From Leptospiraceae bacterium (GTDB taxonomy: Bacteria; Spirochaetota; Leptospiria; Leptospirales; Leptospiraceae), in assembly GCA_024233835.1 (NCBI GenBank), contig JACKPC010000001.1, positions 1,541,442-1,605,441 on the forward strand: 64,000 nucleotides of DNA, given 5' to 3'. The translations under genes were made by a program, and so were the position numbers. Below are positions 5,975 through 59,800 of this stretch, one piece after another. Position 1 is the stretch's first letter. Every line of letters begins with the position of its first letter. The notes under the pieces were generated by a model. The model was not told the DNA's origin. It did not search any database and saw nothing but the letters and a program-made list of their open reading frames with translations.

Positions 5975-6049
5975 GGGTGAACGACGGGATTTGAACCCGC
6001 GACCACCAGAGCCACAATCTGGTGCTCTACCAACTGAGCTACGCCCACC
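5975..6049 (-). tRNA. tRNA-His (anticodon GTG)
   Basis: Reverse complement folds as a cloverleaf with extra 5' G(-1) pairing to C73, which is typical of tRNA-His. Anticodon loop TTGTGGC, T-loop GGTTCAAATCC. Confidence 0.85.
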
Positions 6050-6058
6050 ATATATCTA

Positions 6059-6132
6059 TGACCCGGAAGGGATTCGAACCCCTGACCATCTGCTTAGAAG
6101 GCAGATGCTCTATCCAGCTGAGCTACCGGGTC
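6059..6132 (-). tRNA. tRNA-Arg (anticodon TCT)
   Basis: Acceptor GACCCGG/CCGGGTC, D-arm GCTCAGCTGGATAGAGC, anticodon loop CTTCTAA, T-loop GGTTCGAATCC. Confidence 0.85.
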
Positions 6133-6139
6133 AAATGGA

Positions 6140-6211
<72 letters not shown>

Positions 6212-9370: not shown

Positions 9371-10365
9371 TATTTGTTTTCTCTTAATATATTTTGTCTT
9401 GATTCTTCTCGTAGATATGAAGTTTCTATATATCTATCTTCCAAAAATTCTTTTCCTTGCATTATCATTTCCTTAATTGCTCTACGAAGAATTCTTTCTA
9501 TATCAGCATGTGATAATCCCTTAAACTTCTGCGATAACTCATTTATATCTGTACGTAAATTTCTTCTGACACCCCTTAGTTTTAATTCAATCAGTTTTTT
9601 TATTTGTTCTTTATTAGGATAGCTGAAATTTAAAACTTCTTCAAATCTTCTCCATACTGCACTATCTAATGTTTTTTCATGATTGGTAGCGGCAATTAAT
9701 ATGCTATTTCCACGATAACTATCTAACATTTGCAATAAAGCATTGACTACTCGCTTTATTTCTCCATGCTCTGAATTATCGGCTCTTTCTCTACCCAGAG
9801 CATCAAATTCATCAAATAGTACTACCATATTTGTTTTATTGATGAAGTCAAAAACCTTTCTAAGATTTGCCGAGGTTTCTCCAAGATAGGATGAAACGAT
9901 TGAGTCTATTCTAATGATTGCCAAAGGTAATTCTAACTCGAATGCTATGACTTCTGCTGAAATTGTCTTGCCACAACCCGGTGGGCCATAAAATAATATT
10001 TTGTCTACCGGTTTCAAACCATGTAGTTTTAAAATCTCTCCTCGATTATGCTCCAATAAAATTTCTTCCATAATTGACTTGTTTTCATCAGAAAGAATAA
10101 TCTCATCTATTGAGCGGGTAGGGGTAATTATATGGATTAATGGTAAACCTTTTTCTTTATCATTCGGAATTTCAAGATTCAATATTTGAAAAGAATTTTT
10201 TTCTGGTTCTTTTCCATATAAAATTCTTTCTAAATCATTTGCTAATAAGTGATGCTTTTTAGCTCTTTCCTCATTGATTATTTCCTCTGCAACCTGTTTG
10301 AATGAGTCTTTATCTCCAGAAGTGCCAAATTGAATCATCTTGCGTAAAAGTTTTGAACTGGCCAT
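9370..10365 (-). CDS. AAA+ ATPase (IetA-like)
   Basis: Walker A GPPGCGKT, Walker B VVLFDEFD, second region of homology, arginine finger region (AATNHEKTLDSAVWRRF). Translationally coupled to the subtilase. Confidence 0.8.
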   Translation of the reverse strand: MASSKLLRKMIQFGTSGDKDSFKQVAEEIINEERAKKHHLLANDLERILYGKEPEKNSFQILNLEIPNDKEKGLPLIHIITPTRSIDEIILSDENKSIMEEILLEHNRGEILKLHGLKPVDKILFYGPPGCGKTISAEVIAFELELPLAIIRIDSIVSSYLGETSANLRKVFDFINKTNMVVLFDEFDALGRERADNSEHGEIKRVVNALLQMLDSYRGNSILIAATNHEKTLDSAVWRRFEEVLNFSYPNKEQIKKLIELKLRGVRRNLRTDINELSQKFKGLSHADIERILRRAIKEMIMQGKEFLEDRYIETSYLREESRQNILRENK

Positions 10366-42089: not shown

Positions 42090-43871
42090 TTATACTCCAA
42101 AAACGAGTTTGATTTCTTTTTCATATTCTTCTAAAGCATTCATATCTTCTGAAATGGTACGAATGGTTTTAAATTCGACTTCTTCGATTTTTCCATCAAT
42201 TTTCATGGCTTCGATCAGGTGTTTGATAATCGATGTTTTTTTTGCAGAAGGTGCCGTTTTGAATTTTTCCAATAAACCTTCCATTTCCCTTAAAAATAGT
42301 TCTGTATCATTTTTTTCTAATAGATCGGATATTCTATCCAGGAAGTATTTATTGTGCCCGAACTTTCTGCAGGAGGAATTTAAGAATTCACTCTCTTCTT
42401 TAGAAAAATCATCATCCGCAAAAGAAACAAATAAAGCACCGATTACCATCACAAGGTAGTATTCTCCTTCTTCCTTTTCATTTCCTTTAGAATTGAGAAG
42501 TCTCTCTTTGTTTAAAGCGTCTAAGGGAATTAACTTTGAAAGATTCTGGTTTATGGTATTTTTTTTATATTTTGCTTTTATATTTGTATCCGTAAAAAAC
42601 ATCCGCGTGTTATAAAAATATTCCAGGGCTTTGGCACGAAATACTTCTAAGGGATGAGTTCTCAAAACATCTGAAATTTCAAAATAGGAGCCGGTTTCCA
42701 ATAAGTTGTTTGCCTGGTTCAAATAGTCATCAATTACATAAGAACCAAATTTATCTACATTTCCGGCTGATAGTTTCATAATGGCCTGTACACTGGCCTG
42801 AAAGTTTTTACTGGCAAATAACCCCAGTCTATCCGCATTTAGCTCCTGGATCTGGCTGATTAACATTGAAAACTTTAAAAGTTCAAAGCCTTCTTCTGAT
42901 TGAATAATTCGTATTTCGTCTTCGCTGCGTTCACTTTCATATTGAGGATTAAACATGCGTAAAATGTAATTGTGTAAGAAACTCTGATTATGATTGAATA
43001 CATAGTGTCCGAACTCATGACCGATAATAGTCTTGATTTCATCTTCATCATCTACCAGGTTTAAAATATTATCGGCAAAGCCTAAAATAATCTCTTTCTT
43101 ATCTGAGATAATAAAGGCATTTTCTCCCATGCCTTCTTTGGTTTTAAAAACTTTTATATTGGCTTCTATTTCAAATAGATTTTTTACTTCTTCGATAATC
43201 GAAAAAAGTTTTTCATGGTTTTTTGCATTTAACTCTACCGAGGTTTTCAAGAAATGTTTTAGGGCTGAAGTATAGCCACTCTCTCCGTATTTACTCTGAG
43301 AGTTTTGTTTCAATTTATCTGCCAGTGGAAGTTTTTCCAACTCTGTTTTTAGTTTGTCCTCTTCTATAAGTTTTAGCTCCTGAAGTTTTTTACTACAGTC
43401 AGTACGGGAAAAGTTTTTAACTTTAGGGGGTTTTATATTCAGAGGAGAACTGATTTTTATTTCAACATTCAATTTCTCTTCTGTTTTTATGGCCGCGGAT
43501 GTAGCTATGTCACCCGGAGAACTTTCTCTTCCCGAAGAAAGCTCTTCTCTCGTGTACTGTTTGGGATTTTCTTGTGGAGTAATTTTTTCAAATCGATAGG
43601 GAAAAAGTTCTCTGAATTTTTTATAAGCAAACTCTTTACCTTTAAGCATCGCAGAATCCGGGTCACTTCCCATTACCCGGGTATATAAGCGCAGCATGGA
43701 ATAGCCAATACCGGAAAGGATAAGGAGAGTCAAAAACAATAGAGTGAAACCGGAAGCCTGTTTGCCTTTTTGTATTTCATCAATAGCAACACTGAAGAGG
43801 AGGAAGCTAAAGATTGCTATAACAACAGAAACCGCAATAAAAATGTATTTGAATAACTTTTTTAAAAACAT
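42090..43871 (-). CDS. M48-family zinc metallopeptidase with N-terminal TM and extra C-terminal domain
   Basis: HEXXH (IIGHEFGHYVFNH) with a downstream E. 593 aa. Confidence 0.7.
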   Translation of the reverse strand: MFLKKLFKYIFIAVSVVIAIFSFLLFSVAIDEIQKGKQASGFTLLFLTLLILSGIGYSMLRLYTRVMGSDPDSAMLKGKEFAYKKFRELFPYRFEKITPQENPKQYTREELSSGRESSPGDIATSAAIKTEEKLNVEIKISSPLNIKPPKVKNFSRTDCSKKLQELKLIEEDKLKTELEKLPLADKLKQNSQSKYGESGYTSALKHFLKTSVELNAKNHEKLFSIIEEVKNLFEIEANIKVFKTKEGMGENAFIISDKKEIILGFADNILNLVDDEDEIKTIIGHEFGHYVFNHNQSFLHNYILRMFNPQYESERSEDEIRIIQSEEGFELLKFSMLISQIQELNADRLGLFASKNFQASVQAIMKLSAGNVDKFGSYVIDDYLNQANNLLETGSYFEISDVLRTHPLEVFRAKALEYFYNTRMFFTDTNIKAKYKKNTINQNLSKLIPLDALNKERLLNSKGNEKEEGEYYLVMVIGALFVSFADDDFSKEESEFLNSSCRKFGHNKYFLDRISDLLEKNDTELFLREMEGLLEKFKTAPSAKKTSIIKHLIEAMKIDGKIEEVEFKTIRTISEDMNALEEYEKEIKLVFGV

Positions 43872-43907: not shown

Positions 43908-46900
43908 TTAAGCCACATCAGCATTTCCATTTATCGCATCGATTATTTTCACGACTTTTATAGCATCTTCCCTATTGGGAAAAACTCCGGATAGACCTCC
44001 ATCATTTATGTCGATGAAGGGAGACTCGTTTAGTACTCTTTTTTCTAATGTACCATTTTTTGCCAGATAGTTGATAATCGTTTTCACAAAAGTCATCTGA
44101 TCACCTCTCAGGTTTCCGGCCTGTAAAAATTCGGCAAAGGCCTGATTCAGGGCTTCTGTTTCCAAACCGGTGATACTGCGAATGAAAACTCCTAAAGGCC
44201 TTTCACCGTATTCCTGAACAAATTGCTCTTTACTTCCTGCTACATCATCTGTAAAAAGTATTCTTTCCAGAGCATTTATGTCGTGCTCTGTGATAGATTC
44301 ATTATGCCGGAGTTTATAGATTGTGATGTGGTCTTTGTTATTTCGAATATAGCTTTCTACCCTGTCTTTATAGGATTGCAGGCTGGTATAAATATCTAAG
44401 GGATATTTTTCATCTATTCTTGTTGTATCTAATTTGTCTTTAAAGTTTGTATAGATTGGTTCCTGCTTTTCCGGGTCCAAATATTTTATCAAACTTCGGA
44501 TGGATTTTCTAAGTTCTTCCAGACTGTGCACATGAGCCTTTTGCCAGTAAGCATCGGTTTGGACGGATTGAATAAGTTCTATTTGCTTTGCTATCTGGGG
44601 TATATTGGCTTTTTTTTCCAGCTCTTTTGCCAGTCCTGCGATTTTATTTGTGTATTGGCTGAGACTATTTGTTTCCAGTAAGTAAAGCATACTGCTATGT
44701 ACCAATACATCAAATCTTCTGGCTTTATCATCATCGCCTTTTTGCGGAGGTTCTAAATGGGAAAGATGTTCACTGATGATTGACAGGTCTAATTTGTTTA
44801 GGTTTAACCATTTTTCTTTATAGCTGTATTCTTTCACATATCTCCATTGCTTTTGCACGATAAAGCGATCCTCGTCCAGAGTCGATATGATGTGCTGTAG
44901 TTCCTTTGCATAAAGTTCCTTGATTTGCTTCTCTTCTTCCGTGGTTTCTGTCTTCTGGTTGATAATTACCAGGACTCTGGCTTTGGCCTCAAATATTTGT
45001 TGCTGTAACGATTTTACATTTTTGCTGATATAGCCTTCCGGCTTTGCTTCAAAAAATTCAAAGTTTTCACAATAATCGAAAATAAGAAATTCTTTCTTAT
45101 GAACACCCGGAGCAAATAAATCAGGACAGAGCCTTGTGCCCCTGCCTATCATCTGCCAGAACTTGGTGACGCTGCGTACCAGTTTGAAAAAGACCAGATT
45201 TACCACTCGCGGTGCATCTACACCGGTATCCATCATATCTACGGATACGGCGATTTGTGGATCTTTTTCACTGTGTTCATCACTAAATTTTTCTACGAGA
45301 TCTTCTGCTTTCTCTATGTAGTTGTCAATTACCTGTAAAAACTTGTTGCTGTATTCCGGATAGTTCTTTTCAAATCGTTTCTTGATGAACTCGGCATGGT
45401 TATGGTTTTTAGCAAAGATAATCGTCTTCCCGATTTTATCTCCACCCTCGACCTTTATCCCGTCTTTCATCAGATGTTCAAGAACTTTGTCTACCGTATC
45501 CTGATTGAATAACCAGTTATTTAATGCTTCGCTGCTAATGCTGTCCGGTGCTTCTTCGTTTGATGGGTCGCCGAACTTCTCTTCATATTCCTGTTTTTCT
45601 TTTTCGGATAGCTCGTGGTATTTAATGCCTTCTCTCTGGAATTTCAAGGGAACACTGTAGGCTTTGGCTGGCACCAAATATTTGTCTTTGACGGCTGCGT
45701 CTAATTCGTAGGCGAAGGTAGGGTTGTCATCTTCGATTTGGAAGAGGGAATAGGTATTTTTATCAAAGTCTTTTTTGGGTGTAGCAGTAAGTCCTAATAG
45801 TAAAGAATCAAAATATTCAAAGATGGCTTTATACTTCTGATAGACCGACCTGTGGGTTTCATCAATAATGATGAGATCAAAATGTCCTACTCCGAAATAA
45901 CGCTTATTGTCTATTCTCGTGTGGTCGATTTGATTCATCATCGTTGGATAAGTAGAAAAAACAAGTCTTGCTTCCAAATTGACCTTATCCCTGGTTAGAT
46001 CAATGGAAGACAATTCGGGTAAATGATTATTAAACGCTTTTTTCGCCTGGGTGACAAGGGCGTTTCTGTCAGCTAAGAATAAGACTCTTTTCACCCAATT
46101 GCATTTGAATAACATATCTACAATGGCGGCTGCCGTCCGGGTTTTGCCGCTTCCGGTCGCCATTACCAGCAGGGCTTCTCTTTTAAAGCCTTTGAGATTT
46201 CCCTTCCTGTCGCTTATCACATAGGCTTCGGCAACTCTTCGCAGGGCTTCTAACTGATAGGGTCTATTGATAATATTATGATTTACTGAAAAGTTTCGCA
46301 GGTCTTTTTTATCCAGACGTCTGTCTATGAGAAGTTGTAGTTCATCCTGTGTATAAAAGCCCTGGGTTTGTCTTTCGCTATAGAAAGTATCATCATAGAG
46401 ATAGGTTTCAAAACCATTGGTATAGAAGATAATCGGTCTCTGTCCGTGCATCTTTTCCAGACAGTCGGCATAGAGTTCAGCCTGATGTCTGCCGGATTCT
46501 GCATGTAGCATGGTTCGTTTGGCTTCGATGACAGCAAGAGGTTTGCCGTCCTTTCCCCAGAGAACATAGTCCGCATAGCCCGTGCCGGAAGGGTTTACGC
46601 TTTTAGGCAAGCCCGTTACTTTATATTCCAGATCCTTTCCCTTTTGCAAATGCTCCCAGCCTGCATCCCGAAGGAGGAGGTCGATAAAACGCTCGCGTGT
46701 TTCTTTTTCGGTTACAAGAACGGGAACCACCTGCATCGGGTCGGTTTCTTTGTTTCTTTCTTCTCTTCTGTCTGCGATTTCTTGTTTTAGTCTTTCTAAT
46801 TCCCTGCGTAAAGACTCATTTTCCCTTGCCTGCTCCTGTTGTTTTTTGCGCTCTTCGGCTTCTTTTGCCTGAAGTTGTTCTTTTTCCTGTTCTAAAGCTT

Positions 46901-47354
46901 TGAGCTTTTTGAGAGTTTCCTGTTCCTTCTTGCCATCGGGAATGTGGGAGAGAGAAAACGCGGGTGGCCTGGTTTTTTGCAGAGAGTAGCAAAAATGAAA
47001 AGCACCTAAGAATCGAAATAGGTTTTTGACAGAGACAATGGAATGTTCTTCGGTGATGCTACTGCCGTGGGCCGCGGAATTTCCATAACGGCGGATAAGT
47101 TCAATTTCCCGGGAGAGCCTGGCCGGGCGGATGATTTCTTGAAAATTGGCATCGAAAATAAGAGCGGAAAGATTGTCGGAATAGGGCCTGGTGAGTTTCT
47201 TGTCATGGTCATACATCCAGTTGACAGCCAGCTCCAGGGCACTACGGGCAAGAATGGCACTGGCTTTGGGCGAAAGGAGCGCAAGTCTTTCGGCTTCTTT
47301 TGCCTCAGCAAAAATTGTGGGCCAGGCGGATTGGAGAAAAACAAAGTTCGACAT
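43908..47354 (-). CDS. hsdR: Type I restriction enzyme R subunit HsdR (start chosen at MSNFVF…; ORF track extends to 47474)
   Basis: N-terminal MSNFVFLQSAW consensus and PD-(D/E)xK (…DYVLW…VIEAKRT). Helicase motif I MATGSGKT and motif II IIIDETHR. TGAnATG coupling to the hsdS stop. Confidence 0.85.
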   Translation of the reverse strand: MSNFVFLQSAWPTIFAEAKEAERLALLSPKASAILARSALELAVNWMYDHDKKLTRPYSDNLSALIFDANFQEIIRPARLSREIELIRRYGNSAAHGSSITEEHSIVSVKNLFRFLGAFHFCYSLQKTRPPAFSLSHIPDGKKEQETLKKLKALEQEKEQLQAKEAEERKKQQEQARENESLRRELERLKQEIADRREERNKETDPMQVVPVLVTEKETRERFIDLLLRDAGWEHLQKGKDLEYKVTGLPKSVNPSGTGYADYVLWGKDGKPLAVIEAKRTMLHAESGRHQAELYADCLEKMHGQRPIIFYTNGFETYLYDDTFYSERQTQGFYTQDELQLLIDRRLDKKDLRNFSVNHNIINRPYQLEALRRVAEAYVISDRKGNLKGFKREALLVMATGSGKTRTAAAIVDMLFKCNWVKRVLFLADRNALVTQAKKAFNNHLPELSSIDLTRDKVNLEARLVFSTYPTMMNQIDHTRIDNKRYFGVGHFDLIIIDETHRSVYQKYKAIFEYFDSLLLGLTATPKKDFDKNTYSLFQIEDDNPTFAYELDAAVKDKYLVPAKAYSVPLKFQREGIKYHELSEKEKQEYEEKFGDPSNEEAPDSISSEALNNWLFNQDTVDKVLEHLMKDGIKVEGGDKIGKTIIFAKNHNHAEFIKKRFEKNYPEYSNKFLQVIDNYIEKAEDLVEKFSDEHSEKDPQIAVSVDMMDTGVDAPRVVNLVFFKLVRSVTKFWQMIGRGTRLCPDLFAPGVHKKEFLIFDYCENFEFFEAKPEGYISKNVKSLQQQIFEAKARVLVIINQKTETTEEEKQIKELYAKELQHIISTLDEDRFIVQKQWRYVKEYSYKEKWLNLNKLDLSIISEHLSHLEPPQKGDDDKARRFDVLVHSSMLYLLETNSLSQYTNKIAGLAKELEKKANIPQIAKQIELIQSVQTDAYWQKAHVHSLEELRKSIRSLIKYLDPEKQEPIYTNFKDKLDTTRIDEKYPLDIYTSLQSYKDRVESYIRNNKDHITIYKLRHNESITEHDINALERILFTDDVAGSKEQFVQEYGERPLGVFIRSITGLETEALNQAFAEFLQAGNLRGDQMTFVKTIINYLAKNGTLEKRVLNESPFIDINDGGLSGVFPNREDAIKVVKIIDAINGNADVA

Positions 47355-47355
47355 A

Positions 47356-48513
47356 TCAGGTAAGTTCTCCTTTGAAGGCTTTTTGCAAGAGACAGTTAAA
47401 TAGATCATCGGCTTTTTGAAGGGAAGCCTCCGCATTTGCTTTCTGGGATTCAATTTCTTGAATCCGTTCCGCAAATTGGTTTTGAAGCTCGATGGGTGGG
47501 AGAGGGTAGTCCAAGTCTCTTAAAATTGCTAAGTTAATATTTTTTTGTGCAGATTCAGGTGCAGTTTCTTCGAGAATTTTTTGTAAAAATGACATCCAAA
47601 AATGAGCGTAAATATTATTAGTATTTTCATTTGGAATAAATCCAACAACACTATCAGGAAAACATGCATTAAAAGTTAATATTCCAGTTTTAGCAATATT
47701 AGCTGCAATAGTAATACATAAAGTTCCTGAAGGCCATTTTTTACTTTGTGCTAATCCTATATCTGAATAAGTCGAATCATAAGTTTTTACAAATATTCCA
47801 CTATTTGCTATATCTCCTGTCTGAATTAAGGGATGGGATCCTCCAAGTAGTTCAGGGGCATTTCTTGGTCTATGCTTTGATTTTCCTCTATCCAGTTTCC
47901 CCACTTCTGAAAACTTTACAACCTCCCAGCCTTTGGGGTTCACAACCGGGTCGCCGAACATGTCTAAGAATAGGCTCTGGGCCAGCTCGTCGTATTTGGT
48001 GAGAAGTGCTTTGGTCTTCTGCCGGAACTCATCCGCCGCATCCAGTATCGCCGCGATTTTCTTTTGTTCATCGAGGGGCGGCAGGGGGATTTTGATATCT
48101 TTCAAATATTTAAAATGTCGATTGTATCCAGTATCTGGAATATTTAATTGAGATAAAAAATAATAAATATATTTTGTGTAATTGTTTCTTTCTTTATCTT
48201 GTAATACCTTAACACCATCAGCACCCATAACAAATTTAAAATCTATATATTTGAAAATTCTTGTATGGTCTCCAAAAATTATATAAGGAGGTTCTGATTT
48301 TACTATTTTTTTTTCATCAGAAAGGTAACCTGCAATCTTATTTTTACCTTGATCAATAATAGGAATCTTTCCAGAACTTTCAAACTTTGATTTAGGTATT
48401 TTAAAATTGCCAGCAGAATTATCTTCTAAAACTTCTTCAAAATTTTTAATAACCCATGTTTTTGGTAGTTTACGTAATGTACTTAAATTCTGTACCAAAC
48501 TAAAATCTTTCAT
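47356..48513 (-). CDS. hsdS: Type I R-M specificity subunit HsdS (start moved to MKDFSL… with GGGAGG SD)
   Basis: Two TRDs separated and followed by conserved coiled-coil repeats (LPPLDEQKKIAAILD…, PLPPIELQNQFAERIQ…). The ORF-track N-terminus (MQCVSTGLQCVSTG) is just a REP element read through. Confidence 0.85.
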   Translation of the reverse strand: MKDFSLVQNLSTLRKLPKTWVIKNFEEVLEDNSAGNFKIPKSKFESSGKIPIIDQGKNKIAGYLSDEKKIVKSEPPYIIFGDHTRIFKYIDFKFVMGADGVKVLQDKERNNYTKYIYYFLSQLNIPDTGYNRHFKYLKDIKIPLPPLDEQKKIAAILDAADEFRQKTKALLTKYDELAQSLFLDMFGDPVVNPKGWEVVKFSEVGKLDRGKSKHRPRNAPELLGGSHPLIQTGDIANSGIFVKTYDSTYSDIGLAQSKKWPSGTLCITIAANIAKTGILTFNACFPDSVVGFIPNENTNNIYAHFWMSFLQKILEETAPESAQKNINLAILRDLDYPLPPIELQNQFAERIQEIESQKANAEASLQKADDLFNCLLQKAFKGELT

Positions 48514-48591
48514 TTCATACCTCCCGTTGTTTGAACAGGATTTTTGGATTTCCATCGTGGGTGGAATTGTGGTATTTGAATGGTTGGTTTT

Positions 48592-48647
48592 TCCGGTAGA
48601 TACGCATTGCAACCCGGTAGATACGCATTGCAATGCGTATCTACCGG
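48592..48647. repeat. REP-like element: direct duplication of CCGGTAGATACGCATTGCAA followed by its inverted copy, forming a ~36-bp perfect hairpin
   Basis: Seen directly. Located between hsdS and the RAYT gene. Confidence 0.65.
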
Positions 48648-48686
48648 GTTGAACCGATTGTGGTTGTTTATTTGCATATTATCTTC

Positions 48687-49388
48687 CTATAATTCCTTTT
48701 TGTTTGTGTTTGCAGGATTATCCCGGATATACCGACGCACATTTTCCAGTTCCCGTTGGCTGCGGATAATGCGGTCATAAAACCGGGATTGCCATTGGAA
48801 ATTTGGGTTTATGGTTTCATGAATCCGTCGCGTGGATTTGGATTTAAACCCCCGGATGATATTGGATATATTTTGAATGTACATATATGAATAATGATGG
48901 ATGGTATCAATCCCCGTAGGGACGCATTGCAATGCGTCCCTACGGGACAATGCGTCCCTACGGGGCAATGAATCCCCACGGGGCAATGAATCCCCACGGG
49001 GCAATGAATCCCCACGGGGCAATGAATCCCTACGGGGCAATGAATCCCCACGGGGCAATGAATCCCCACGGGGCAATGAATCCCCACGGGGCAATGAATC
49101 CCCACGACGGGGGCGGGGATAATCAATTTGGATGATGCCGTGGATATGATCCGGCATGATGATAAATTCGTCCAGATATACATTGGGTCGCATGATAATG
49201 GTTCTGTACCATTCCTCGTGGATGATTTGTCCGATGGTGGATAATATCATTTGATGATTAAAAATATTACCCAAATAGGGTTCGCGGTTCTTCGTGCAAA
49301 TGGTGATAAAATAATACCCCGGATGGGAATAATCCCAATTTTTTAACCTTGCTGATTCGACGCGGTATTTATTATTGTATAAGGTCAT
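48687..49388 (-). CDS. REP-associated tyrosine transposase (RAYT, IS200/IS605-like Y1 HUH transposase) with internal repeat expansion
   Basis: HUH motif (MPDHIHGII). Catalytic Tyr motif (WQSRFYDRII) and C-terminal …YIRDNP. Between them an in-frame (RGDSLP)n insertion encoded by REP-derived 18-bp repeats. Confidence 0.75.
   Translation of the reverse strand: MTLYNNKYRVESARLKNWDYSHPGYYFITICTKNREPYLGNIFNHQMILSTIGQIIHEEWYRTIIMRPNVYLDEFIIMPDHIHGIIQIDYPRPRRGDSLPRGDSLPRGDSLPRGDSLPRRDSLPRGDSLPRGDSLPRGDSLPRRDALSRRDALQCVPTGIDTIHHYSYMYIQNISNIIRGFKSKSTRRIHETINPNFQWQSRFYDRIIRSQRELENVRRYIRDNPANTNKKEL
48911..49108. repeat. REP-like 35-bp hairpin (CCCCGTAGGGACGCATTGCAATGCGTCCCTACGGG) followed by 8 tandem 18-bp units (CAATGAATCCCCACGGGG)
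   Basis: Seen directly. Lies inside the RAYT ORF and keeps all six frames open across the region. Confidence 0.85.
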
Positions 49389-49416
49389 TTGATTTACCTA
49401 TAATTCCTATATCAGT

Positions 49417-49872
49417 TTAGCCCTTTTTCTTTTTCAATTCCATTAGAATTTTAAGGTCCCATTTGTCCTGCTCTCTTTCTGTTTGCTTACTTTTAATTAA
49501 AGAATCCAGACCCAAATATGGAATTTCTAATTTATCTAATTCTAAAATACATACATCTTTCATTGCATCATCGTAAGTTAAAGACCAGGCACTGAGCAAA
49601 ATGTCTAACTCGGGTTCATCATATATTTTAATCACAATATTCTCTAAAAAGTCTTCAACTGTAACTTTTTCTAAATGAGGATATAATTCCTCGATACAGG
49701 AAATCACATTTTGAATGTTCTTTCTGTCGTTTTGAATTAACACGTCAATATCTTCTGTGGCGCGTACATACCCATGAAAAGAACAGGCTCTTGCACCCAC
49801 AATTACAAACTTAACATCATGCTTCTTTAGCAAAAAACAAACTCTTTGGATCTCATTCATAATGTTCCACAT
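49417..49872 (-). CDS. nucleotidyltransferase-fold protein (MNT-like), paralog of 50295-50837
   Basis: G-A…R-x-T-E-DIDVLI (GS/x…DxD) Pol-beta NTase-like motif. 151 aa. Confidence 0.5.
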   Translation of the reverse strand: MWNIMNEIQRVCFLLKKHDVKFVIVGARACSFHGYVRATEDIDVLIQNDRKNIQNVISCIEELYPHLEKVTVEDFLENIVIKIYDEPELDILLSAWSLTYDDAMKDVCILELDKLEIPYLGLDSLIKSKQTEREQDKWDLKILMELKKKKG

Positions 49873-50038
49873 ACCTTTTGAGAGAGAATAGGTAATGTTC
49901 CTCCCAGGTACGAAATTTAAAAATCTTTCCTTTCTTCTTTTGAATGGGAGAATTCTTTTTTAATTCAGCAATCAATTTTTCCTGAACTTCGAGATTCTCC
50001 AGGGCTGTTCTTTCTTTCTTATTGCCGATGATTTTCAT
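49853..50038 (-). CDS. small hypothetical protein (61 aa)
   Basis: ORF in a tight operon (20-nt overlap with the downstream gene). Confidence 0.3.
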   Translation of the reverse strand: MKIIGNKKERTALENLEVQEKLIAELKKNSPIQKKKGKIFKFRTWEEHYLFSLKRYVEHYE

Positions 50039-50050
50039 AAGTTTTCCATC

Positions 50051-50302
50051 TCACTTTTTCTCTAAGTTCCGAAGATGCTGGATGAACTTCTCTTTTTCTT
50101 CTTCAGAAAAATCATTACCGTAATACCTCAGAAAAAGACGGATTTTGATTTCTGTTTTGCTGAGCCCCGGTGGAAAAGAAGCCAATACAATTTTTCTTGC
50201 TGCTGTGCAACTGGCAAACCCCAGCTTCATCCTTTCTTCACCGGTAAGTTTCGCATAACGTTCTCTTAGCATCTGACGTATTTCGGGTGAGGTATCATCC
50301 AT
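50051..50302 (-). CDS. small hypothetical protein (83 aa)
   Basis: ORF. 8-nt overlap with the upstream NTase-like gene. Confidence 0.35.
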   Translation of the reverse strand: MDDTSPEIRQMLRERYAKLTGEERMKLGFASCTAARKIVLASFPPGLSKTEIKIRLFLRYYGNDFSEEEKEKFIQHLRNLEKK

Positions 50303-50837
50303 TTTCTAACTCCTGTAAAAGTTCATAAACTCCGAGTTCTTTACTATATTCATTCACATAGGCTTTATCAAAATTAGAAGAGAGAAGGTTTATTAAGTCC
50401 CGTTTTTGCATTTCGGATTGAGATTTTTTCATCCAATCTAATTTGGAAAGTATTAAGTCTTCCTTACTAACCATAAACGTTTCAAAATCTTCTATTACTA
50501 CTTTAACCCTTCTTTCAAACTCTAATCGTCTATAAGCTGTTTTTTTACGCAGGATGAAGTCTATTTTGATAATACTTTCATTGTGAATGATATTGAACAT
50601 TTTATTATTCTCAATAGCCAATTTGATAGCATCAGGATCAATATAATATACTTCAGAAAAAATTTTCTCAAGTATAGTAATATCTTCCTGCTGTAAATAA
50701 ACTACTATATCAATATCTCTGGTCATTCTCGGTTCAATATAAAAGTTCATTGCCATAGAGCCTGTAACCATAAATGGAATTTGATTCTCTATAAGTTTGT
50801 TAGAAACATCTTTTAATATTTTAATATCATCACTCAT
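50295..50837 (-). CDS. nucleotidyltransferase-fold protein (MNT-like), paralog of 49417-49872
   Basis: GSMAMNFYIEPRMTRDIDIVV motif. Shared C-terminal …Q-x-ER/KRD…DL…L segment with the 151-aa paralog. Confidence 0.5.
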   Translation of the reverse strand: MSDDIKILKDVSNKLIENQIPFMVTGSMAMNFYIEPRMTRDIDIVVYLQQEDITILEKIFSEVYYIDPDAIKLAIENNKMFNIIHNESIIKIDFILRKKTAYRRLEFERRVKVVIEDFETFMVSKEDLILSKLDWMKKSQSEMQKRDLINLLSSNFDKAYVNEYSKELGVYELLQELENG

Positions 50838-50849
50838 TCTCTAAGTTCC

Positions 50850-52328
50850 TCACTTCAAAAGCTTTTTCAAGACCTTCAATGTCTCATTTCGTTCTTTATC
50901 AAAGGCTTCGATTTCAGCAATGATTTCGGATGGTGGAGCATAGCTTTCTTCCTCGTATTCAACTTCTCTGTAGCGATTAATTGATAGGTCCCAGCCATTG
51001 GCCTCGTTTATTTCTTTTTTGGGAACTAAGAAACTCTTATCTGTCCGTTTACGTTTCTTCTCCTTAGGTAAATTAGAAAAACGTTGTATAATATCCGGAA
51101 TGTCATTATCTTTAATAGGATTACGCTTATCGTCCAAACTGTAACCATCCGCCTGCATATCATAAAACCAGATATTTTCTGTACCTCCGGTCCCGGTTTT
51201 GGTAAAATAGAGAATAGCTGTACTTACACCGGCATAGGGTTTAAACACGCCACTCGGCATAGAAATCACCGCATCGAGTTTTTGATTTTCCACAAGCTCT
51301 TTACGGATTTGCTTATGTGCTGTGGAACTTCCGAAAAGAACACCATCCGGTACTATCACAGAAGCTCTTCCACCCACTTTTAACATACGTAAAATCAATC
51401 CTAAGAATAATAACTCAGTTTTTTTAGATTTAACAATCGTTAAAATGGAGCCTTCAATTCCATCATAGTCCACACTGCCCTTGAAAGGAGGATTGGCCAG
51501 AATCAAAGTAAATTTGTCTCTATACTGTTTTGCATTTTCACTGAGTGAGTCCATTTTTTTTAGATCGGGATTTTCTATTCCGTGCAGGACCATATTCATC
51601 GCACCAATGCGAATCATGGTATCATCAAACTCAAGGCCATGAAACATGGTATCACTAAAATGCTTTCTAAACTTTTTATCATGAAACCAATCTTTATGAT
51701 TGTCCCGAAAATATTCACCGGCATTTACTAAGAATCCGGAGGTACCGGCTGCCGGGTCACAAATGATGTCCTCTCTTTTTGGTTCTACGATATCTACCAT
51801 CAGACGGATAATATGGCGTGGAGTGCGGAACTGTCCGTTTCTTCCGGCAGAAGCAATTTTGGAAAGCATATACTCATACAAATCACCCTTGGTATCCCGG
51901 TCTTTCATGTCGATTTTATCGATGAGTTGCACGACCTGATCCAGAAGTCTCGGAGTTGAAATGACAAAGGTTGCCCGTCCCATAAATTCGGCAAATGCTC
52001 CACCGGATTTACCCACCTGTTTCATGTGCTCAAAAACGGAAAGATTATCTACAGAGGATTTTGTGAAAAGTTCAAACATGGCTTCCGGGTCTTTATTTTT
52101 AAATGAATGCCAGCGAAGATTTTTTTGCTTGCTGGAGAATATTTTTACTTCCCGTGGAATGCCTAAGAGAACAGAATTTTCTTCATCGGCTAATTGGATT
52201 TCATCAATTCTGCGTAGAAAAAGGAGGTAGGTAAACTGCTCAATGACAGTTAAAGCATTGGTGATACCTCCCCAGGCAAAAGCCTCCCAGATTCTATCAA
52301 CTTGTGATTTTAATTCCCCTGTAATCAT
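50850..52328 (-). CDS. hsdM: Type I R-M N6-adenine methyltransferase HsdM
   Basis: N-terminal HsdM_N (…ELKSQVDRIWEAFAWGGITNALTVIEQFTYLLFLRR). Motif I DPAAGTSGFL. Motif IV NPPF. Confidence 0.9.
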   Translation of the reverse strand: MITGELKSQVDRIWEAFAWGGITNALTVIEQFTYLLFLRRIDEIQLADEENSVLLGIPREVKIFSSKQKNLRWHSFKNKDPEAMFELFTKSSVDNLSVFEHMKQVGKSGGAFAEFMGRATFVISTPRLLDQVVQLIDKIDMKDRDTKGDLYEYMLSKIASAGRNGQFRTPRHIIRLMVDIVEPKREDIICDPAAGTSGFLVNAGEYFRDNHKDWFHDKKFRKHFSDTMFHGLEFDDTMIRIGAMNMVLHGIENPDLKKMDSLSENAKQYRDKFTLILANPPFKGSVDYDGIEGSILTIVKSKKTELLFLGLILRMLKVGGRASVIVPDGVLFGSSTAHKQIRKELVENQKLDAVISMPSGVFKPYAGVSTAILYFTKTGTGGTENIWFYDMQADGYSLDDKRNPIKDNDIPDIIQRFSNLPKEKKRKRTDKSFLVPKKEINEANGWDLSINRYREVEYEEESYAPPSEIIAEIEAFDKERNETLKVLKKLLK

Positions 52329-53456: not shown

Positions 53457-53897
53457 ATGAAACGAATACTTTGTAAAATACTCATCACGTTTGGTCTGTT
53501 CCTAATCGGAACAGAAATTTTAGCCGGAGAACATAAGCTGACAATTCCGGCTTTGGGACTTGATACTTTTGCAGCTTATTCCATGCAGGAAAACTCTCTT
53601 GAGATGGAAGAAATCGGATTGAAGTTTCTCATGGAAATAGATACTTTCCGAATTTTATCTATTGGTCGGGATAAGATTCAAAAGAAGAGTGAATTCCATT
53701 TGAAAGGTTTATTTATATTCGGTTTAAATTCTTCTTCAAAACAAAAATATAAGCTTCTTTCCAAAGAGAATATGGATTCCTTTGAAATAGTTAGAAGCAC
53801 TGGAAATCTTTTGCTTTTTAAGCAGCCTCTTTATTTTCAAGTAAGAGAAATACGGCATATTTATCTTCAGATTCGTAATAAAGGAGAATCTGTATGA
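53457..53897 (+). CDS. hypothetical secreted protein (146 aa)
   Basis: Signal peptide. ATGA overlap with the giant gene start. Confidence 0.4.
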   Translation: MKRILCKILITFGLFLIGTEILAGEHKLTIPALGLDTFAAYSMQENSLEMEEIGLKFLMEIDTFRILSIGRDKIQKKSEFHLKGLFIFGLNSSSKQKYKLLSKENMDSFEIVRSTGNLLLFKQPLYFQVREIRHIYLQIRNKGESV

Positions 53898-56800
53898 AGT
53901 ATTTAGTTTATATTATATATTTATTCTGGAATATTGGAATGTTCGCTTATGACTTACCCGGACTTAGATATACCAAACCGGATATTATAAATGAAGTAAA
54001 GCCTCATATCGAAAGAGCGAATCTGGAAGAGAATGAAGTAGCCTGGAAAGAAAGTATGGAGACAGCAAAAACAAAACTATTTGAAAACTGGAATCAGGAC
54101 CTGGAAGGGGAAATTCAACAGATACTTTCCTCTATTCCTTCAACCGAAACCGGGATGGAAACAGAAATTTATACTTCGGAAATACTTAACTTTTTAAAAA
54201 TTCAAAAAGAAGCTTTATTGAAGCAATGGAACTCAGAAATGGAACAGTATATACTCGGGGAATTTTCTAACTTTTTAAATCTTCACACCGGAGGGGAAGA
54301 AGAAAAGGGAGAATCCTATGACCAGGAAGTTCTATCGATTGATGATTCTATAGCAAAAGAAATGCAGCCGGATACAGTTACGGAAGAATATTATCTAGGA
54401 AAAGATTACTGGGAAAAAAATGCAGCAGAACTTCTGGAAAGAAGAAAGAAATGGGAAGACGAATCTTTACAAACCATACAAAAAGGTATGGAGGAGTGGA
54501 ATCGACTGATAGGGGATTTGGAAACTGAAAAAGAAAAACAGGAAACCGGAATCGAAGAAAGGATTAATTATTGGAAGAATTATAAACTAAATTTGGAACT
54601 CTTACTTAAGAAGAATCGAGAAGACTTACAGGCCTATCTGGTAAATACAAGAAGTGAGATGAATCAGATGTTATCTACCGTTGATACAAATGAGGCTATA
54701 GTAGACAAGGAAGCCTTTAAGCAGTCTATCGGAAATTATTTGCAATTACAGGAAAGTCTGAATACAGCCTTAGCTTCCGGTGCTTCTCTGGAAGAGCTAT
54801 CTTTGCAAATATCAAAATATTACGATACAAAGAAATTAGAAGCTTCGAATAAAGCTGAATACTGGAAGGCTGAGAAAAGCATCACCGGAAAGATACATGA
54901 AGAAACGGTAAATTTTAATACAGATTTGGGTTATAGTAAAATCTATTGCGAAACGCTTCGAAGAGAAGGATTTGAAGATGCCTGTCCTTTCGGAACAGTT
55001 GATTCTCCCACATATAAGGCTATGAGCATGACAGAAGATGGAACCATGCTTGGCTGGCATATGGATGCTTCCACAAAAGAACTGTATTTAGGAACGAGAT
55101 ATTATTACAATACAGACTCTTATAAAATACCTATATACGGGTATTATACAGAAGTTAATAATGGTTTCTCGGAAGAGATTCACGGGCCTGTATATGATGT
55201 CAGGTTTGATAATACCGGGTTTGATATGATAAAGTATCAGGAAAATATTAGAATATTAGGTATTATAAGAAAAACGGGAACTCAGGATCTCAGTCGTTTT
55301 CTGAATGGAAATATCAGGATAGACTCACAGTCCAGCCAACTAAAAGCTAAGGATCCGGGCAGTGGAGAGTGGAGATATTTTACCGAAGCAGGAACTCATT
55401 CTTCCGAATTCAAGTATTATGGAGAAAAGATAACTATGGACTGGCAGATTCCTGTTTCGACTGCAAATGTCCGAAATGATCTAATTATAGAAACCAATTA
55501 TTCTTATACAGATAGGAATGCAGAGGCGAATGAAACATTCTGGAATAATTTGTCGCAAAAGTATTCTTCCTATGCTGAGAACTTTCGCAACCTTTCTATA
55601 GCTTTAAGCGGTATAGAAAAGAAAGTTAGTGATTTCTTGAATATTTATGATTCCAGTCTGGAAAGTCTTACAAACTATAAAGCTGAAATTGCAGAGAGCA
55701 TGAACAAAGAGATTGCCGCTCAGGTGAAGGAAAGAGATATTTGGATTGAAGAAGTATATGGCTATACACTTGATGATTTTACAAATTCAGTCGGAGAAAA
55801 TGTAAATTCTGAATACAGACTGGGGCAAAAAGAATGGGAGGATGCCTTCCGAGCCTATAGAAGAAGAGAATTGACATGGTTGGAAGAAGCTGCAAAAGAA
55901 TTGGATAAGAAAGTCTACGGGCCGAATGAGAGTGAAACAAGTCTTTTAAGTAAAATTGAAACTTCTACAAAAAGCATGAAAGAAGATATTCTGGAATCTG
56001 AAGAAAGAGTGGAAGATCTAAAGCAGTATGCTGAAACACAGAGGGATTCTTTTTACTTTAAAAGTGCAAAGGAGCTAATTGAAGAAGCTGAACTTTTAAA
56101 AGAACAGGAACTTATAAGTAATCAAAAAGCCATGCACTTATCCGAAGAGGCTCTAAATTCAAGTATAAGGGCAGAAAACTATCTTCTTGCAGAGAAGGAT
56201 TCTTTGGTTCTTGCTTCATTGATTAAATCCGAATTTGGAGAAGAAGCTTCTGTTGTAGAGCCGGATATTGAGAGGTTTCAAACCGAACAAGTTTATTGGA
56301 AAAATGAAATAGAAGGAGCGGATGGAGGTTTTGCTTATAAAAAGCGTATTCGATTAGCAGAACTGGAATTACCTGTGCTAAAGCAGAACTCTCTGGATTT
56401 ACAAAAAGCGGAGAACTTACAGGCTCAGATGATTGAAAAAGAAAAGAAATCTTTTCTTGCCCTGAATGAGAAATATAAAAAGGCTGAATCCTATTATAGC
56501 TCCTACGAAAGTGAAAAAGCAAACGCTGAGCTGGAAAATGCTGAGTATTATTATCATTTAAGTATTCGAACCCGGGAAGAAGCCAGGGAGAGTTTTTATA
56601 AGGAATATAAAGAAAATCTTAAAGATGCAGAAACATCATTTAATGAAAGTAAATTGATATATTCCTATAGTGCTATGGAGAATTATCTCAAAAGAAAAAA
56701 ATCTTTATTAGAATATGATTATGCTATATTAATCGCTCAAGTAAAAGAAGATGCTTTCAAACAGGAATCTGATTTAAACTCAGAAATTAAAGACATTCTA

Positions 56801-59800
56801 TCGAAAAGCCGCATAAACAGAACAAGGCAACAAGAGAATTTACAGGATCTCGGAGCCTTATTGGAGCTTGCTAAAAGGCTTTCGACTTCGAGTATTCCTG
56901 AAATCATGAACTGGAAAGAAGAAGCTTTACAGCTAAGCTATAAAGGTCCTATGAATCTGAATCCCAAACGATTGGATGTTTCCAATCTTTCTTACCTGGA
57001 AGCGGAATATCGGAAGGGTATCTTACACTATAATGAACTGGAAAAGCATTCCTTTCTAACAGAAGAAGAAGTGCAGTCCATTAATAGCCTGTTTGCAGGT
57101 ATGAGTGAAAGCTTAAATAGTGCCGGTAATGAGTCGATTCGAAACTACACAAACTCAATTATGGAAAAGTTAATTAGCAAAGCTAAGAATCTTGGTTCCG
57201 GTTTGCAGGATAAACTGATTAAGGAGCTAAACTCGGATGTAAAGTATAAATATTTGCGGGATAAAGGATACGAGTTTCAAAAAGTATCCTCAGATATAAT
57301 TCGGATAGGGAAAAACATAAAAAATGGGGAGCTCAATGCCTATGGTTATGCCATGGAAGAAAATACCTATGGACCGCAGTATACCTATTTACAGTTTACG
57401 ATTCAGACCGAATACAGAGTCCCGGCTTTTTCTCTTGGGAATGCAGATTCTATATTTCGGGAAGAATTTAAAGCTCTTGAATTGCAGGGGAGCTTAGAAA
57501 GTATTCAAGAATATTATAATTCAGTGGAATCCGAAATCGCTCTTTTCTTTGATAAGGCTAAAGAAATTGAAGACGCCTATAAAGCTGAGGAATTGAATAT
57601 ACAAACTCTTGAAGATAACTACATTTCATTAAAAGATAGCTATGTAGAGAACTATCAGGGTCTTGAACCAGCTTATCGCACATCCTATGACGCAAGTATC
57701 TCTGACTTCAAGAAGAGCATGGAGAGCATGGAATATACTTTTTCCGGAAAACAGGGAAAACGTGTATTGAAGGGGAAAGCGAATGTGCCAACTCCTATCG
57801 GGGTCTTGCCTATGGATATAGTTTACGGAGAGCAGACTCTGGAATTACCTTCTGATTTTACATTAGCTGATTTAAAACGTTCTTATGAGTTAAGCGGTCA
57901 GGGGAGTTCGTATGTAGCGAACACGATTCAGGAATCCAATGACGATTTTTCAAAATACCTTAGAGAAAAGATAAACGCTTTACAGAAAGTTTATGAAGCG
58001 AATGAAAGAGACAAAGAAGAAAAAGGTTTTCTTTTTGATGTGCTGAGCGGAGCTGCCGGAAGTTCCGGGAGTGTGAAAAAGGCGATTCAAACTTCCTTGA
58101 AGAATGAAGTTCAGTCGAGAGTATCGGCTCAGATAGCAAAAGATTCCGGACTTCCCACCGAATTTGTCTCAGCTTTAATGGGAGGAAAGAAACCTCAGGA
58201 AGCAGCCAGGTCTTATGTTGAATCGAAGGCTAAAACTGAACTGGCAAAAGCTTTGAATCTTCCACCGGAATTGATGATGAGCTACCTGGAAAAGAACGGT
58301 GTGGTTAAGAAAAAAGATCCACTGCGTCAATATACAAATGCCGGTAGTGCTTTACTTGTAAGCGGTGCTGCCGGTCTTGTATTGGGGCCTTCTGCCGCTT
58401 TACTTCCCCTTGCAGTAGAGGTTTTAAATAGTACTGCTTCGAAAAGCTTAGGGAAAAATAACCCCTTAACTAAGGGCGTAAATTCCTATTCAAATTTTAT
58501 GGATAGAACAGTAAGAAATGATGTAAGTGATTTCTTATATAAGAACGATCAAATAATTGATACAACTGTAACAGTAGGGGCTCACGTAACTACTGCTATG
58601 GCCTATGGAACCGCAGCCGTGGGGACGGCTTTTGCCTGGACGGGTGTGGGAGCAGGGATTGCCGCCGGAGGAGTAAGTCTGGGGATGGCAGTAAGTTCAG
58701 GTTACGCGGCCTATAAGGCTGCTCGTGGAGCTGTATTTGGTGGAACAAAGGGAGCTCTGGCCGGTGTACTTACAGCCGGTGCTACTGTTAGCCAGGTTGT
58801 TGGTGTTACTTATGATGTTTCCTATACTTATGACGGAGGTTTTGCGGGAGGTTTAGGACTCAGTCTTCCGGGAACCGGAAGCTTCCTTAGTGCCGGAGTT
58901 CGATTTGGAGAGGGAAGGAAAGCTTCCTATAGATTGGGAGCTGAATACGGAGGACTGAATCTGGGTCTAAATATGGATGGACAGCAAATCCAGTCCGCCT
59001 CTTTATCTTATGGAACAAGAGTTAGTGATGTAAAAATGAATCTGGGCTATAATTGGTCAGCTACGAATGGAAATGGACTGGGATTGAGTCTTGGGAATGA
59101 AAACGTCAAGATAGGTATAGATCACAGCGAATATGGTGGCACTGATTTTTCTCTGGATGGAAGCTTGAAGCTGAACCCTTTATTAACTACAAATGCGGGT
59201 ATAAGCTGGAATACTAAGGGAAAATGGGGTGTTGATGCGTCTATTGAATATAAGGAACAGAGAAAGCGAGGGGAATACTCTGACATATTATCTAACGGAG
59301 AATTCGGTATTCACTATGATGGTAGAAATATAAGTGCTAATTTAGATCTTGCCGGTACCAACGCATTTCGATATGAAAATGGTACTGTAATCGGAAATAC
59401 AAATTTTGCCCAGGAATTTGGTAACGCTTATTTTAAGAAACGTACTCTTGAACAGATGGAAGTGGAAAGAGAAATAAAAGAAGAGGAAGAAAGAAGGCAG
59501 GAAGAAGAACGCAGGAAAGAGTCCAGACGTAATTTCTTGAATTCCCTGGGGATTGTTGAAGAGAAAGATGAAGATGAAACCGATACAGAAGAAGATAAAC
59601 TGGAAGAAGAAAAGCGTACTCTGTCTATTGTGTATATAAAAACTACTACAGAAGAAGCGGAAGATTATATTCAGGATCTGGAAAAGAGCGGGAAGTATAC
59701 GGCTGAAGAAATAGCTGATCTAAAGAACTCATTAAAAACAGCACAGAAAAGTTGGTCGGACAAAGATAAGAGAACTGAGATGTTAGAAGCCACTAAAAAC

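Follow-up and report, generated by a model that had tools for sequence, protein, structure and literature searches.

The region analyzed here, positions 43908–52328 of a 64-kb stretch (the window) of a contig from a Leptospiraceae metagenome-assembled genome, is most likely a horizontally acquired Type I restriction-modification (R-M) operon of the order hsdM-hsdS-hsdR, with an EcoAI/EcoEI-like HsdR, whose junction between hsdM and hsdS (the M-S junction) holds three independent selfish or defense modules. Two of them each combine a MenT1-like minimal nucleotidyltransferase (NTase), predicted to be a toxin, with a small partner (NT1-sm1 and sm2-NT2), and the third consists of RAYT, a Y1 (HUH) transposase, together with repetitive extragenic palindromic (REP) hairpins. 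The three modules are co-oriented and packed at operon spacing.

The Interrupted hsd Operon

Eight open reading frames (ORFs), all on the minus strand, were read in the region. Their order is hsdM, NT1, sm1, sm2, NT2 and RAYT, followed by a strong hairpin, hsdS and hsdR, and the extra genes separating hsdM and hsdS span about 2.3 kb. The ORF reading and the domain matches confirmed, exactly or to a few bases, the gene order and coordinates given in a preliminary description of this DNA, with one correction. The element described there as a RAYT with REPs at 49388–48592 does contain a RAYT, but its ORF already stops at 48687, and what follows as far as 48593 contains a REP-like palindrome with a half copy; a second palindrome and a tandem array lie within the ORF. 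As read from the sequence, 12 nt separate the hsdM stop from the NT1 ATG, NT1 and sm1 overlap by 8 nt (ATGGATGA), 12 nt lie between sm1 and sm2, sm2 and NT2 overlap, and gaps of 28 and 173 nt precede RAYT and hsdS, respectively. The coupling of hsdS to hsdR, earlier proposed to have the form TGAnATG, reads TGAtATG.

The R-M genes form a complete Type I hsdM/S/R set with intact domains, for which restriction and methylation activity is predicted. The first gene, hsdM (50850–52328), encodes a Type I N6-adenine methyltransferase of 492 aa that matches Pfam N6_Mtase (2e-64) and HsdM_N (1.6e-10) and PADLOC MTase_I (604 bits), and its translation shows the DPAAGTSGF and NPPF motifs. The specificity subunit encoded by hsdS (47356–48513; 385 aa) has two target-recognition domains, with Methylase_S matched in two stretches (1.4e-31) and PADLOC Specificity_I at full length (298 bits, residues 14–384); the hsdS ATG is preceded at 7 nt by GGGAGG. 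The product of hsdR (43908–47354), a restriction/translocase subunit of 1148 aa with an N-terminal DUF4145 and an EcoEI_R_C tail, was matched by ResIII (1.7e-36), EcoEI_R_C (1.2e-21), HSDR_N, Helicase_C and DUF4145 in Pfam and by REase_I in PADLOC (559 bits over residues 3–1139), and the NCBIfam match to the EcoAI-type R subunit was sub-threshold. The DUF4145 domain (window 47000–47354, residues 1–105) was also observed in the HsdR of Flavobacteriaceae relatives, aligned from residue 1, and is therefore characteristic of the family rather than a fusion that arose locally.

The GC content at third codon positions (GC3) varies along the locus, being 0.25 in NT1 and hsdS, 0.33 in NT2, 0.38 in hsdM, 0.43 in hsdR and about 0.5 in RAYT, against a background of 0.29, and the overall GC content reaches 0.45–0.47 in the 5′ third of hsdR. 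This mosaic is consistent with the assembly of the locus from parts of different origin.

The same locus in the same flanking context was found in two further assemblies, GCA_020440905.1 (L029) and one ENA assembly (L030). L030 is identical to the window, and L029 differs by a few substitutions and by the copy number of the array inside RAYT. Its hsdS carries a GGA-to-TGA nonsense change at codon 81 and four substitutions in codons 96–100 (codons 81–100 correspond to window 48214–48273 and to L029 10751–10810). In the other 13.7 kb compared, one substitution was found outside the repeat array. The hsdS changes could mean that the first target-recognition domain was lost or has recombined, or that the sequence is the consensus of a mixed population; specificity may have been lost in some populations.

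A Putative MenT1/MenA1-Like Pair, NT1-sm1

The first cargo gene, NT1 (50295–50837), encodes a protein of 180 aa that passed the threshold of the Pfam family AbiEii (PF08843; 24.4 bits, cut-off 22.5). It belongs to a large and well-conserved family; clustering at 90% identity gives 7639 homologous clusters, and identity across sources is about 50%. Its AlphaFold2 (AF2) model was obtained with a pLDDT of 93, and the best fold match in the PDB was MenT1 (8an5/8an4) over the full length, with an E-value of 1.6e-9 and template modeling (TM) scores of 0.67–0.70 (0.67 for 8an5_B). The family profile also retrieved 8an4 (E 8e-6), the segment PRMTRDIDIVV of NT1 aligning with PRFTRDVDIVV of MenT1, and the single-sequence search of the PDB gave a weak MenT1 match (E 0.078). 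The invariant residues of the family are G26, S27, T39, D41, D43, K132 and D147, of which T39, D41 and D43 fall in this aligned segment and match T39, D41 and D43 of MenT1. By their invariance and their spacing of 15 residues, which is that of K137 and D152 in MenT1, K132 and D147 would be the counterparts of that pair. In MenT1 itself, D41, K137 and D152 are essential for toxicity (PMC10435456) and T39 is a regulatory phospho-site (PMC11375011).

The small gene sm1 (50051–50302), encoding 83 aa, follows NT1 and is its predicted partner, a putative MenA1-like antitoxin. A homologue of sm1 was found directly downstream of the NT1 homologue in 81 of 86 loci, and among 76 complete ORFs its start mostly overlaps the NT1 stop by 4, 8 or 13 nt. 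No family match was obtained for sm1 in Pfam, NCBIfam or PADLOC. Eight of 28 sm1 relatives matched the Pfam family PF18993 (Rv0078B-related antitoxin, MenA1) with 12.7–19.4 bits, below the cut-off of 27.1, and all in one register, from profile positions 1–25 up to 1–52. Residues D3, T4, R24, G28, S42, R59 and Y61 of sm1 are invariant. Taken together, the fold, the invariant residues, the coupled partner and the sub-threshold antitoxin matches make a MenT1/MenA1-like pair, its toxin gene in first place, the most plausible reading of NT1-sm1.

A Second Putative Module, sm2-NT2

The second NTase, NT2 (49417–49872), has 151 aa, or 147 aa if the alternative ATG at 49860 is used. Its best Pfam match was DUF6036, with 22.7 bits against a cut-off of 23.6, and no AbiEii match was observed. 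The AF2 model (pLDDT 91.7) had MenT1 as its best PDB fold (8an5_B, E 1.4e-4, query TM score 0.69), and residues G26, T39, D41, D43, K129, D136 and D139 are invariant. A search of the PDB with the single NT2 sequence was uninformative, returning an unrelated protein at E 1.1. Since the single-sequence searches were weak, profiles and structure prediction were required to settle the nature of NT1 and NT2. The close family of NT2 is small, with 29 clusters in a word-indexed search, and the number of representative clusters rose from 19 at an E-value of 1e-30 to 914 at 1e-10 and 7909 at 1e-3.

The predicted antitoxin gene of this module, sm2 (49853–50038; 61 aa), lies upstream of NT2. Homologues of sm2 with 60–63 aa and 47–59% identity were found upstream of NT2 homologues, overlapping their starts, in three unrelated chromosomal contexts. 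No similarity was detected between sm2 and sm1. NT1 and NT2 share about 25% identity over 63 N-terminal residues, and hhalign aligned them (93.6%) over 66 columns, in the N-terminal NTase core only. On this comparison, the two NTases are distant relatives within a single superfamily, with homology confined to the N-terminal core. The four small genes make up two independent two-gene modules and not one four-gene unit.

These results refine what had been proposed for the four small genes. The term “two paralogous” NTases was too strong, given the core-only homology, the unrelated partners and the opposite gene order, and “Abi-like” proved apt, since NT1 scores above the AbiEii cut-off and both NTases have a MenT1-like fold. 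The suggestion of retrons was rejected, as no reverse transcriptase domain was detected in the cargo proteins by Pfam, NCBIfam or PADLOC and no retron RNA by Rfam. The search of the four proteins with profile hidden Markov models, which the same description had advised, identified NT1 as AbiEii but gave only the sub-threshold DUF6036 match for NT2 and none for sm1 and sm2; PADLOC and NCBIfam returned nothing useful for any of them. A PrrC/RloC-type ABC-ATPase or anticodon-nuclease domain was absent from the cargo according to Pfam and PADLOC. A HEPN/MNT reading of both pairs was also considered and rejected, the partners being too small and without the conserved Rx4-6H motif.

Related hsd Loci and Origin of the Cargo

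The closest HsdM relatives retrieved came from Flavobacteriaceae, Polaribacter and Reichenbachiella metagenome-assembled genomes, with 66–74% identity (49–63% for HsdR), followed by Planctomycetota with 55%. In five of the related loci (L001, L002, L003, L005, and L006) the hsdM stop and the hsdS start lie no more than a few bases apart. Homologues of NT1, sm1, sm2 and NT2 were not found in any of 28 related hsd loci, and the closest loci, in which hsdM abuts hsdS, also lack a RAYT. The view that the genes are acquired passengers was thereby supported, and the four genes are not universal among the related loci recovered.

Searches in the opposite direction gave a matching picture. With tblastn, hsd genes were found in none of the 86 NT1 loci and in none of the three NT2 contexts; the same search caught an hsdM of 23% identity elsewhere. 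No evidence was found among the compared loci that the four cargo genes and RAYT move as one five-gene block. Because the related hsd loci lack the cargo and the modules are free-standing in non-hsd contexts elsewhere, the data fit a lineage-specific capture of autonomous modules.

Other cargo was observed in the relatives. Between hsdS and hsdR (the S-R junction), DUF1643 and GmrSD genes were found in L001, Schlafen/AlbA_2 and HATPase_c_4 in L002, an AbiU2-like gene in L006, a TIR protein in L007, and Hypoth_Ymh and SIR2_2 in L008. The M-S junction held IS3 and unannotated genes in L007 and uncharacterized genes in L008. The M-S junction had been called a hotspot for such insertions; inserts do exist there, but the S-R junction is the commoner site, both in this hsd family and in the literature.

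RAYT, Its REP Hairpins and Transcription of the Operon

RAYT (48687–49388) encodes a Y1 (HUH) transposase of 233 aa with a long insert after the HUH motif. Pfam Y1_Tnp was matched in two stretches (3.8e-9), and NCBIfam REP_Tyr_transpos with 54 bits, below its cut-off of 80. The HUH residues H81 and H83 and the catalytic Y220 are invariant among 29 relatives. Two GTAG-headed perfect palindromes, near-identical to each other, accompany the gene. One lies inside the ORF (48912–48946), with 100% complementary arms of 17–18 nt and an RNA fold of −33.2 kcal/mol (z −6.1). The other lies between RAYT and hsdS (48610–48651), 36 nt past the RAYT stop, with arms of 21 nt, and is followed by a half copy, the two together spanning 48593–48651. 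Its RNA fold reaches −44.7 kcal/mol (z −9.0) and has no U-tract.

Preceding the internal palindrome, an in-frame array of 9.9 copies of an 18-bp unit was detected at 48929–49106 (Tandem Repeats Finder score 300, 95% matches). The unit, CCCGTGGGGATTCATTGC, agrees with the REP arm CCCGTAGGGACGCATTGC in 15 of its 18 positions, and the array consists of left-arm copies of the REP that have diverged. In L029 the array (about 10008–10095) has five fewer units (90 bp, 30 aa) and several unit variants, giving a RAYT of 203 aa as against 233 aa. As the array differs between near-identical assemblies, it is length-variable in natural populations, with the frame kept.

The 16-nt REP core ACGCATTGCAATGCGT occurs in only two places in the window, inside and downstream of RAYT, so that its repetitiveness is not shown within these 64 kb, and no REP was found upstream of the gene. 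With no upstream REP and no dispersed copies in the window, the locus agrees only in part with the classical definition of a RAYT gene that is flanked by REPs and whose REPs are dispersed.

The insertion may, as had been suggested, have uncoupled hsdM from the expression of hsdS and hsdR. Simple promoter and terminator scans gave counts equal to those of shuffled sequence, and the operon-like spacing suggests that hsdM and the genes down to RAYT probably share one transcript. The only notable element is the REP hairpin ahead of hsdS, which may stabilize the upstream message or attenuate read-through.

Proposed Function and Alternative Explanations

By homology to MenT1, each NTase would add nucleotides to the 3′ acceptor ends of tRNAs and so block translation, and each small partner would neutralize its NTase by sequestration, possibly also by inducing the auto-phosphorylation of Thr39, as in MenAT1. 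The embedded modules would most likely be addiction or abortive-infection passengers that stabilize the island and back up restriction, and they probably do not belong to the R-M enzyme itself. The hairpin that precedes hsdS may modulate read-through or mRNA stability without abolishing it.

The closest known system is MenAT1 of M. tuberculosis (Rv0078A/Rv0078B; DUF1814/AbiEii toxins). Besides MenT1 being the best structural match of NT1 and NT2, the likeness lies in the Thr39-x-Asp41-x-Asp43 loop and the downstream Lys/Asp pair, present in both NTases, and in the small (61–83 aa), translationally coupled partner that each of them has. NT2 differs in being shorter (147–151 aa) and in lacking part of the C-terminal helical region. 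The modules of the window differ further in being embedded in an hsd operon instead of free-standing.

Several points weigh against the reading of the locus as an hsd operon with embedded toxin-antitoxin modules. The toxic and antitoxic roles and the tRNA target are carried over from proteins with only 16–19% identity in the structure-based Foldseek alignments. NT2 falls below the threshold of every Pfam NTase family, and sm2, which is unrelated to MenA1, has no detectable relatives of known function (no Pfam match). The sm1 of the window gives no PF18993 match itself, and the sm1 profile retrieves no PDB chain, MenA1 included. The toxin-first order of NT1-sm1 is the reverse of that of the M. 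tuberculosis pair, in which rv0078B precedes rv0078A. Given the nonsense codon in the hsdS of L029, the R-M part may not function in every population, and a “recent” insertion is deduced from distant hsd relatives only.

Other explanations were weighed against this one. One of them holds that cargo and REP hairpin cut the expression of hsdS and hsdR, so that the R-M system is being lost and an orphan methylase with selfish elements remains. The −44.7 kcal/mol hairpin within the 173-nt gap before hsdS would point this way, as would the nonsense codon 81 and the four substitutions in codons 96–100 of hsdS in the otherwise near-identical locus of L029. Such decay is nevertheless unlikely, as both the window and L030 have intact, full-length hsdS and hsdR, preceded by a good Shine-Dalgarno sequence and joined by the TGAtATG coupling, the hairpin lacks a U-tract, no terminator-like site rises above chance, and REPs in other bacteria typically stabilize the upstream mRNA without full termination (see PMC3733652). 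It is also conceivable that the NTase toxins are wired to the R-M system as PrrC is to EcoprrI, remaining silent under an intact Hsd complex or intact operon expression until an anti-restriction protein or a transcription shut-off frees them as an abortive-infection second line. The toxins are indeed embedded in the operon at translational-coupling distances, labile small antitoxins on the hsd transcript would drop upon host transcription shut-off, and there are precedents in PrrC and in R-M guardians such as PARIS (PMC12707154; 10.1101/2024.01.29.577857). Neither PrrC nor RloC homology was found, however, and the absence of hsd genes from all 86 NT1 loci and all three NT2 contexts places the modules overwhelmingly outside hsd operons, which argues for their own control with no need of an Hsd partner. 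Because both modules are normally free-standing, a PrrC-like dependence on the Hsd complex is rather improbable.

The nature of the NTases and the route of the cargo were questioned in the same way. The proteins might be MNT-like antitoxins or partner modifiers, or ANT(2″)/LnuA-type nucleotidyltransferases of small molecules such as antibiotics, given that fold matches to ANT(2″)-Ia, LnuA and TM1012 were also significant and that one NT2 homologue is annotated as PF10706 aminoglycoside-2″-adenylyltransferase. This is very unlikely in view of MenT1 being the top, full-length match for both models, of the strictly conserved coupled small partner, typical of toxin-antitoxin pairs and unlike resistance enzymes, of the lack of the HEPN Rx4-6H motif in the partners, and of the sub-threshold matches of sm1 relatives to an antitoxin family. 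As for the route, RAYT could have delivered the cargo, the four genes and RAYT forming a composite single-strand transposon bounded by REP hairpins that entered the M-S junction. RAYT is contiguous with the cargo (28-nt gap), has kept its HUH and Tyr residues, and has homologues that recur inside R-M operons. Yet the end of the cargo next to hsdM has no REP, the core occurring only inside and just downstream of RAYT, and neither did other RAYT loci carry NT1, sm1, sm2 or NT2 nor NT loci carry a RAYT, so that such a delivery seems extremely doubtful. An hsd operon that captured three separate modules remains the favored explanation.

Comparison With Other Embedded Systems

The embedding of toxin-antitoxin and defense genes in Type I operons is already documented, and this locus is a further example and not a new system. 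In the RptR-RMS-DarTG-M48 island of enteropathogenic Escherichia coli (EPEC), DarTG2 is embedded in a Type I R-M system (RMS) and an M48 metallopeptidase comes last, after hsdR (PMC12255303). In the window, the next gene after hsdR (42090–43871, minus strand), which may or may not belong to the locus, encodes an M48-domain membrane protein of 593 aa. It starts 36 nt past hsdR with its own AAAGGAG, and its product has a Peptidase_M48 domain (2.1e-16), a membrane-like N-terminus and a weak TerB-like C-terminus. No M48 homologue was found following hsdR in the related hsd loci. The two loci are thus alike in carrying a toxin-antitoxin system, predicted in the case of the window, inside a Type I operon, in the M48-domain protein directly after hsdR, and in being thought to be horizontally acquired. 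They differ in the toxin, an ADP-ribosyltransferase in DarTG2 versus an NTase here, and in the position of the cargo, which in EPEC lies between hsdS and hsdR; the M48 protein of the window, a possible relative of the EPEC one, has 593 aa and a membrane N-terminus. As no minus-strand ORF of at least 50 aa was found upstream of hsdM, no RptR-like regulator gene is apparent, RptR not having been searched by sequence.

PrrC, embedded in EcoprrI (PMC12707154), offers another comparison. It is almost exclusively embedded in Type I R-M systems (10.1101/2024.01.29.577857), and “guilt-by-embedding” genes have been described in Type I R-M, BREX and DISARM systems (Payne et al. 2024 preprint, 10.1101/2024.01.29.577857). 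The locus shares with these the presence of predicted translation-targeting suicide effectors inside an hsd operon and the variable cargo of related loci. Unlike PrrC, its cargo has no ABC-ATPase or anticodon-nuclease homology, and NT1-sm1 and sm2-NT2 are almost always free-standing.

Other features of the window lie outside the operon. About 1.6 kb from hsdM, on the plus strand, there is an ORF of 2293 aa (53894–60775), rich in sequence of coiled-coil-like and low-complexity character; ahead of it come two small ORFs whose N-termini resemble signal peptides. A cluster of tRNA-His(GTG), tRNA-Arg(TCT) and tRNA-Pro(TGG) at 5975–6211 on the minus strand gave the only Rfam matches in the window.

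REP Palindromes Within RAYT Reading Frames

RAYT with its palindromes resembles the RAYT/REP pairs known as REPtrons in combining a Y1 HUH transposase with adjacent GTAG-headed perfect palindromes (Nunvar 2010, PMC2817692; Di Nocera 2013, PMC3733652). It differs from them in lacking an upstream REP and other copies in the 64 kb, in its NCBIfam score below the cut-off, and in the location of one REP copy and an array of REP half-units, which sit within the ORF, in the loop that follows the HUH motif. A hypervariable insert of 12–100 aa, often repetitive, was observed at this same position in all RAYT homologues, and peptides in it such as VETHCNASLQ, RRDALQCVST and VETPNLGVST are translated GTAG-headed palindromes. 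In the DNA of L132, L135, L138 and L140, a perfect palindrome with a stem of 15–18 bp was found in the ORF together with an identical or near-identical one just outside it (palindrome sites at 1776–1805 and 2056–2085 in L132 and at 5272–5303 in L140). A stem of at least 14 nt could be encoded by the insert in 69 of 103 homologues, compared with 23 for the N-terminal flank, 14 for the C-terminal flank and 4 for shuffled inserts. Translation of the hairpin uses two or more codon phases, 47 of 120 homologues being VET-type and 14 RDA..VST-type, and these different phases show that the hairpin is conserved at the DNA level. In term searches of three RAYT/REP papers (Nunvar 2010, Di Nocera 2013, Bertels 2017) and in a wider literature search, intragenic REPs were found described in other genes only and not inside RAYT genes; a REP copy inside the RAYT reading frame may be new.

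The genomic contexts of the homologues were also compared. Among nine RAYT homologues chosen blind to context, three lay in or beside defense loci and six in non-defense contexts. In L140 (2111–9287) the homologue separates hsdS from hsdR in a different Type I system, in L132 (1–3531) it lies between an SNF2 helicase and a DUF1156 methylase, and in L143 (5941–12492) a Type I-B cas operon follows directly downstream of it. In L022 (11542–14611), one of the related hsd loci, a GIY-YIG gene and RAYT follow hsdS. Counting L022 and the window, these contexts suggest an enrichment of RAYT in defense loci. Relatives on viral contigs were limited to four short loci. In L140, one REP copy was also observed within the 3′ end of hsdS.

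Taken together, these observations raise the possibility, which we regard as tentative, of a RAYT subfamily that keeps its own REP substrate within the gene, conserved at the DNA level, with REP-derived units there that expand and contract in frame. Such a copy could serve as a self-targeting, autoregulatory or phase-variable switch, and the subfamily may prefer, and perhaps help to remodel, R-M and other defense operons. If true, REP hairpins inside RAYT genes would be of interest to mobile-DNA specialists.

Biological Implications

Current concepts are left unchanged by this locus. It provides a clean natural case of “defense-in-defense” in a little-studied lineage, in which two different minimal MenT-like modules appear to have been captured by one R-M operon. 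The very large and so far uncharacterized NT1-sm1 family can be placed as MenAT1-like on the evidence given above, and the locus also contributes another minimal NTase family, whose partner is novel. NT1-sm1 and sm2-NT2 are therefore candidates for testing the role of tRNA-3′-end nucleotidyltransferase toxins in phage defense.

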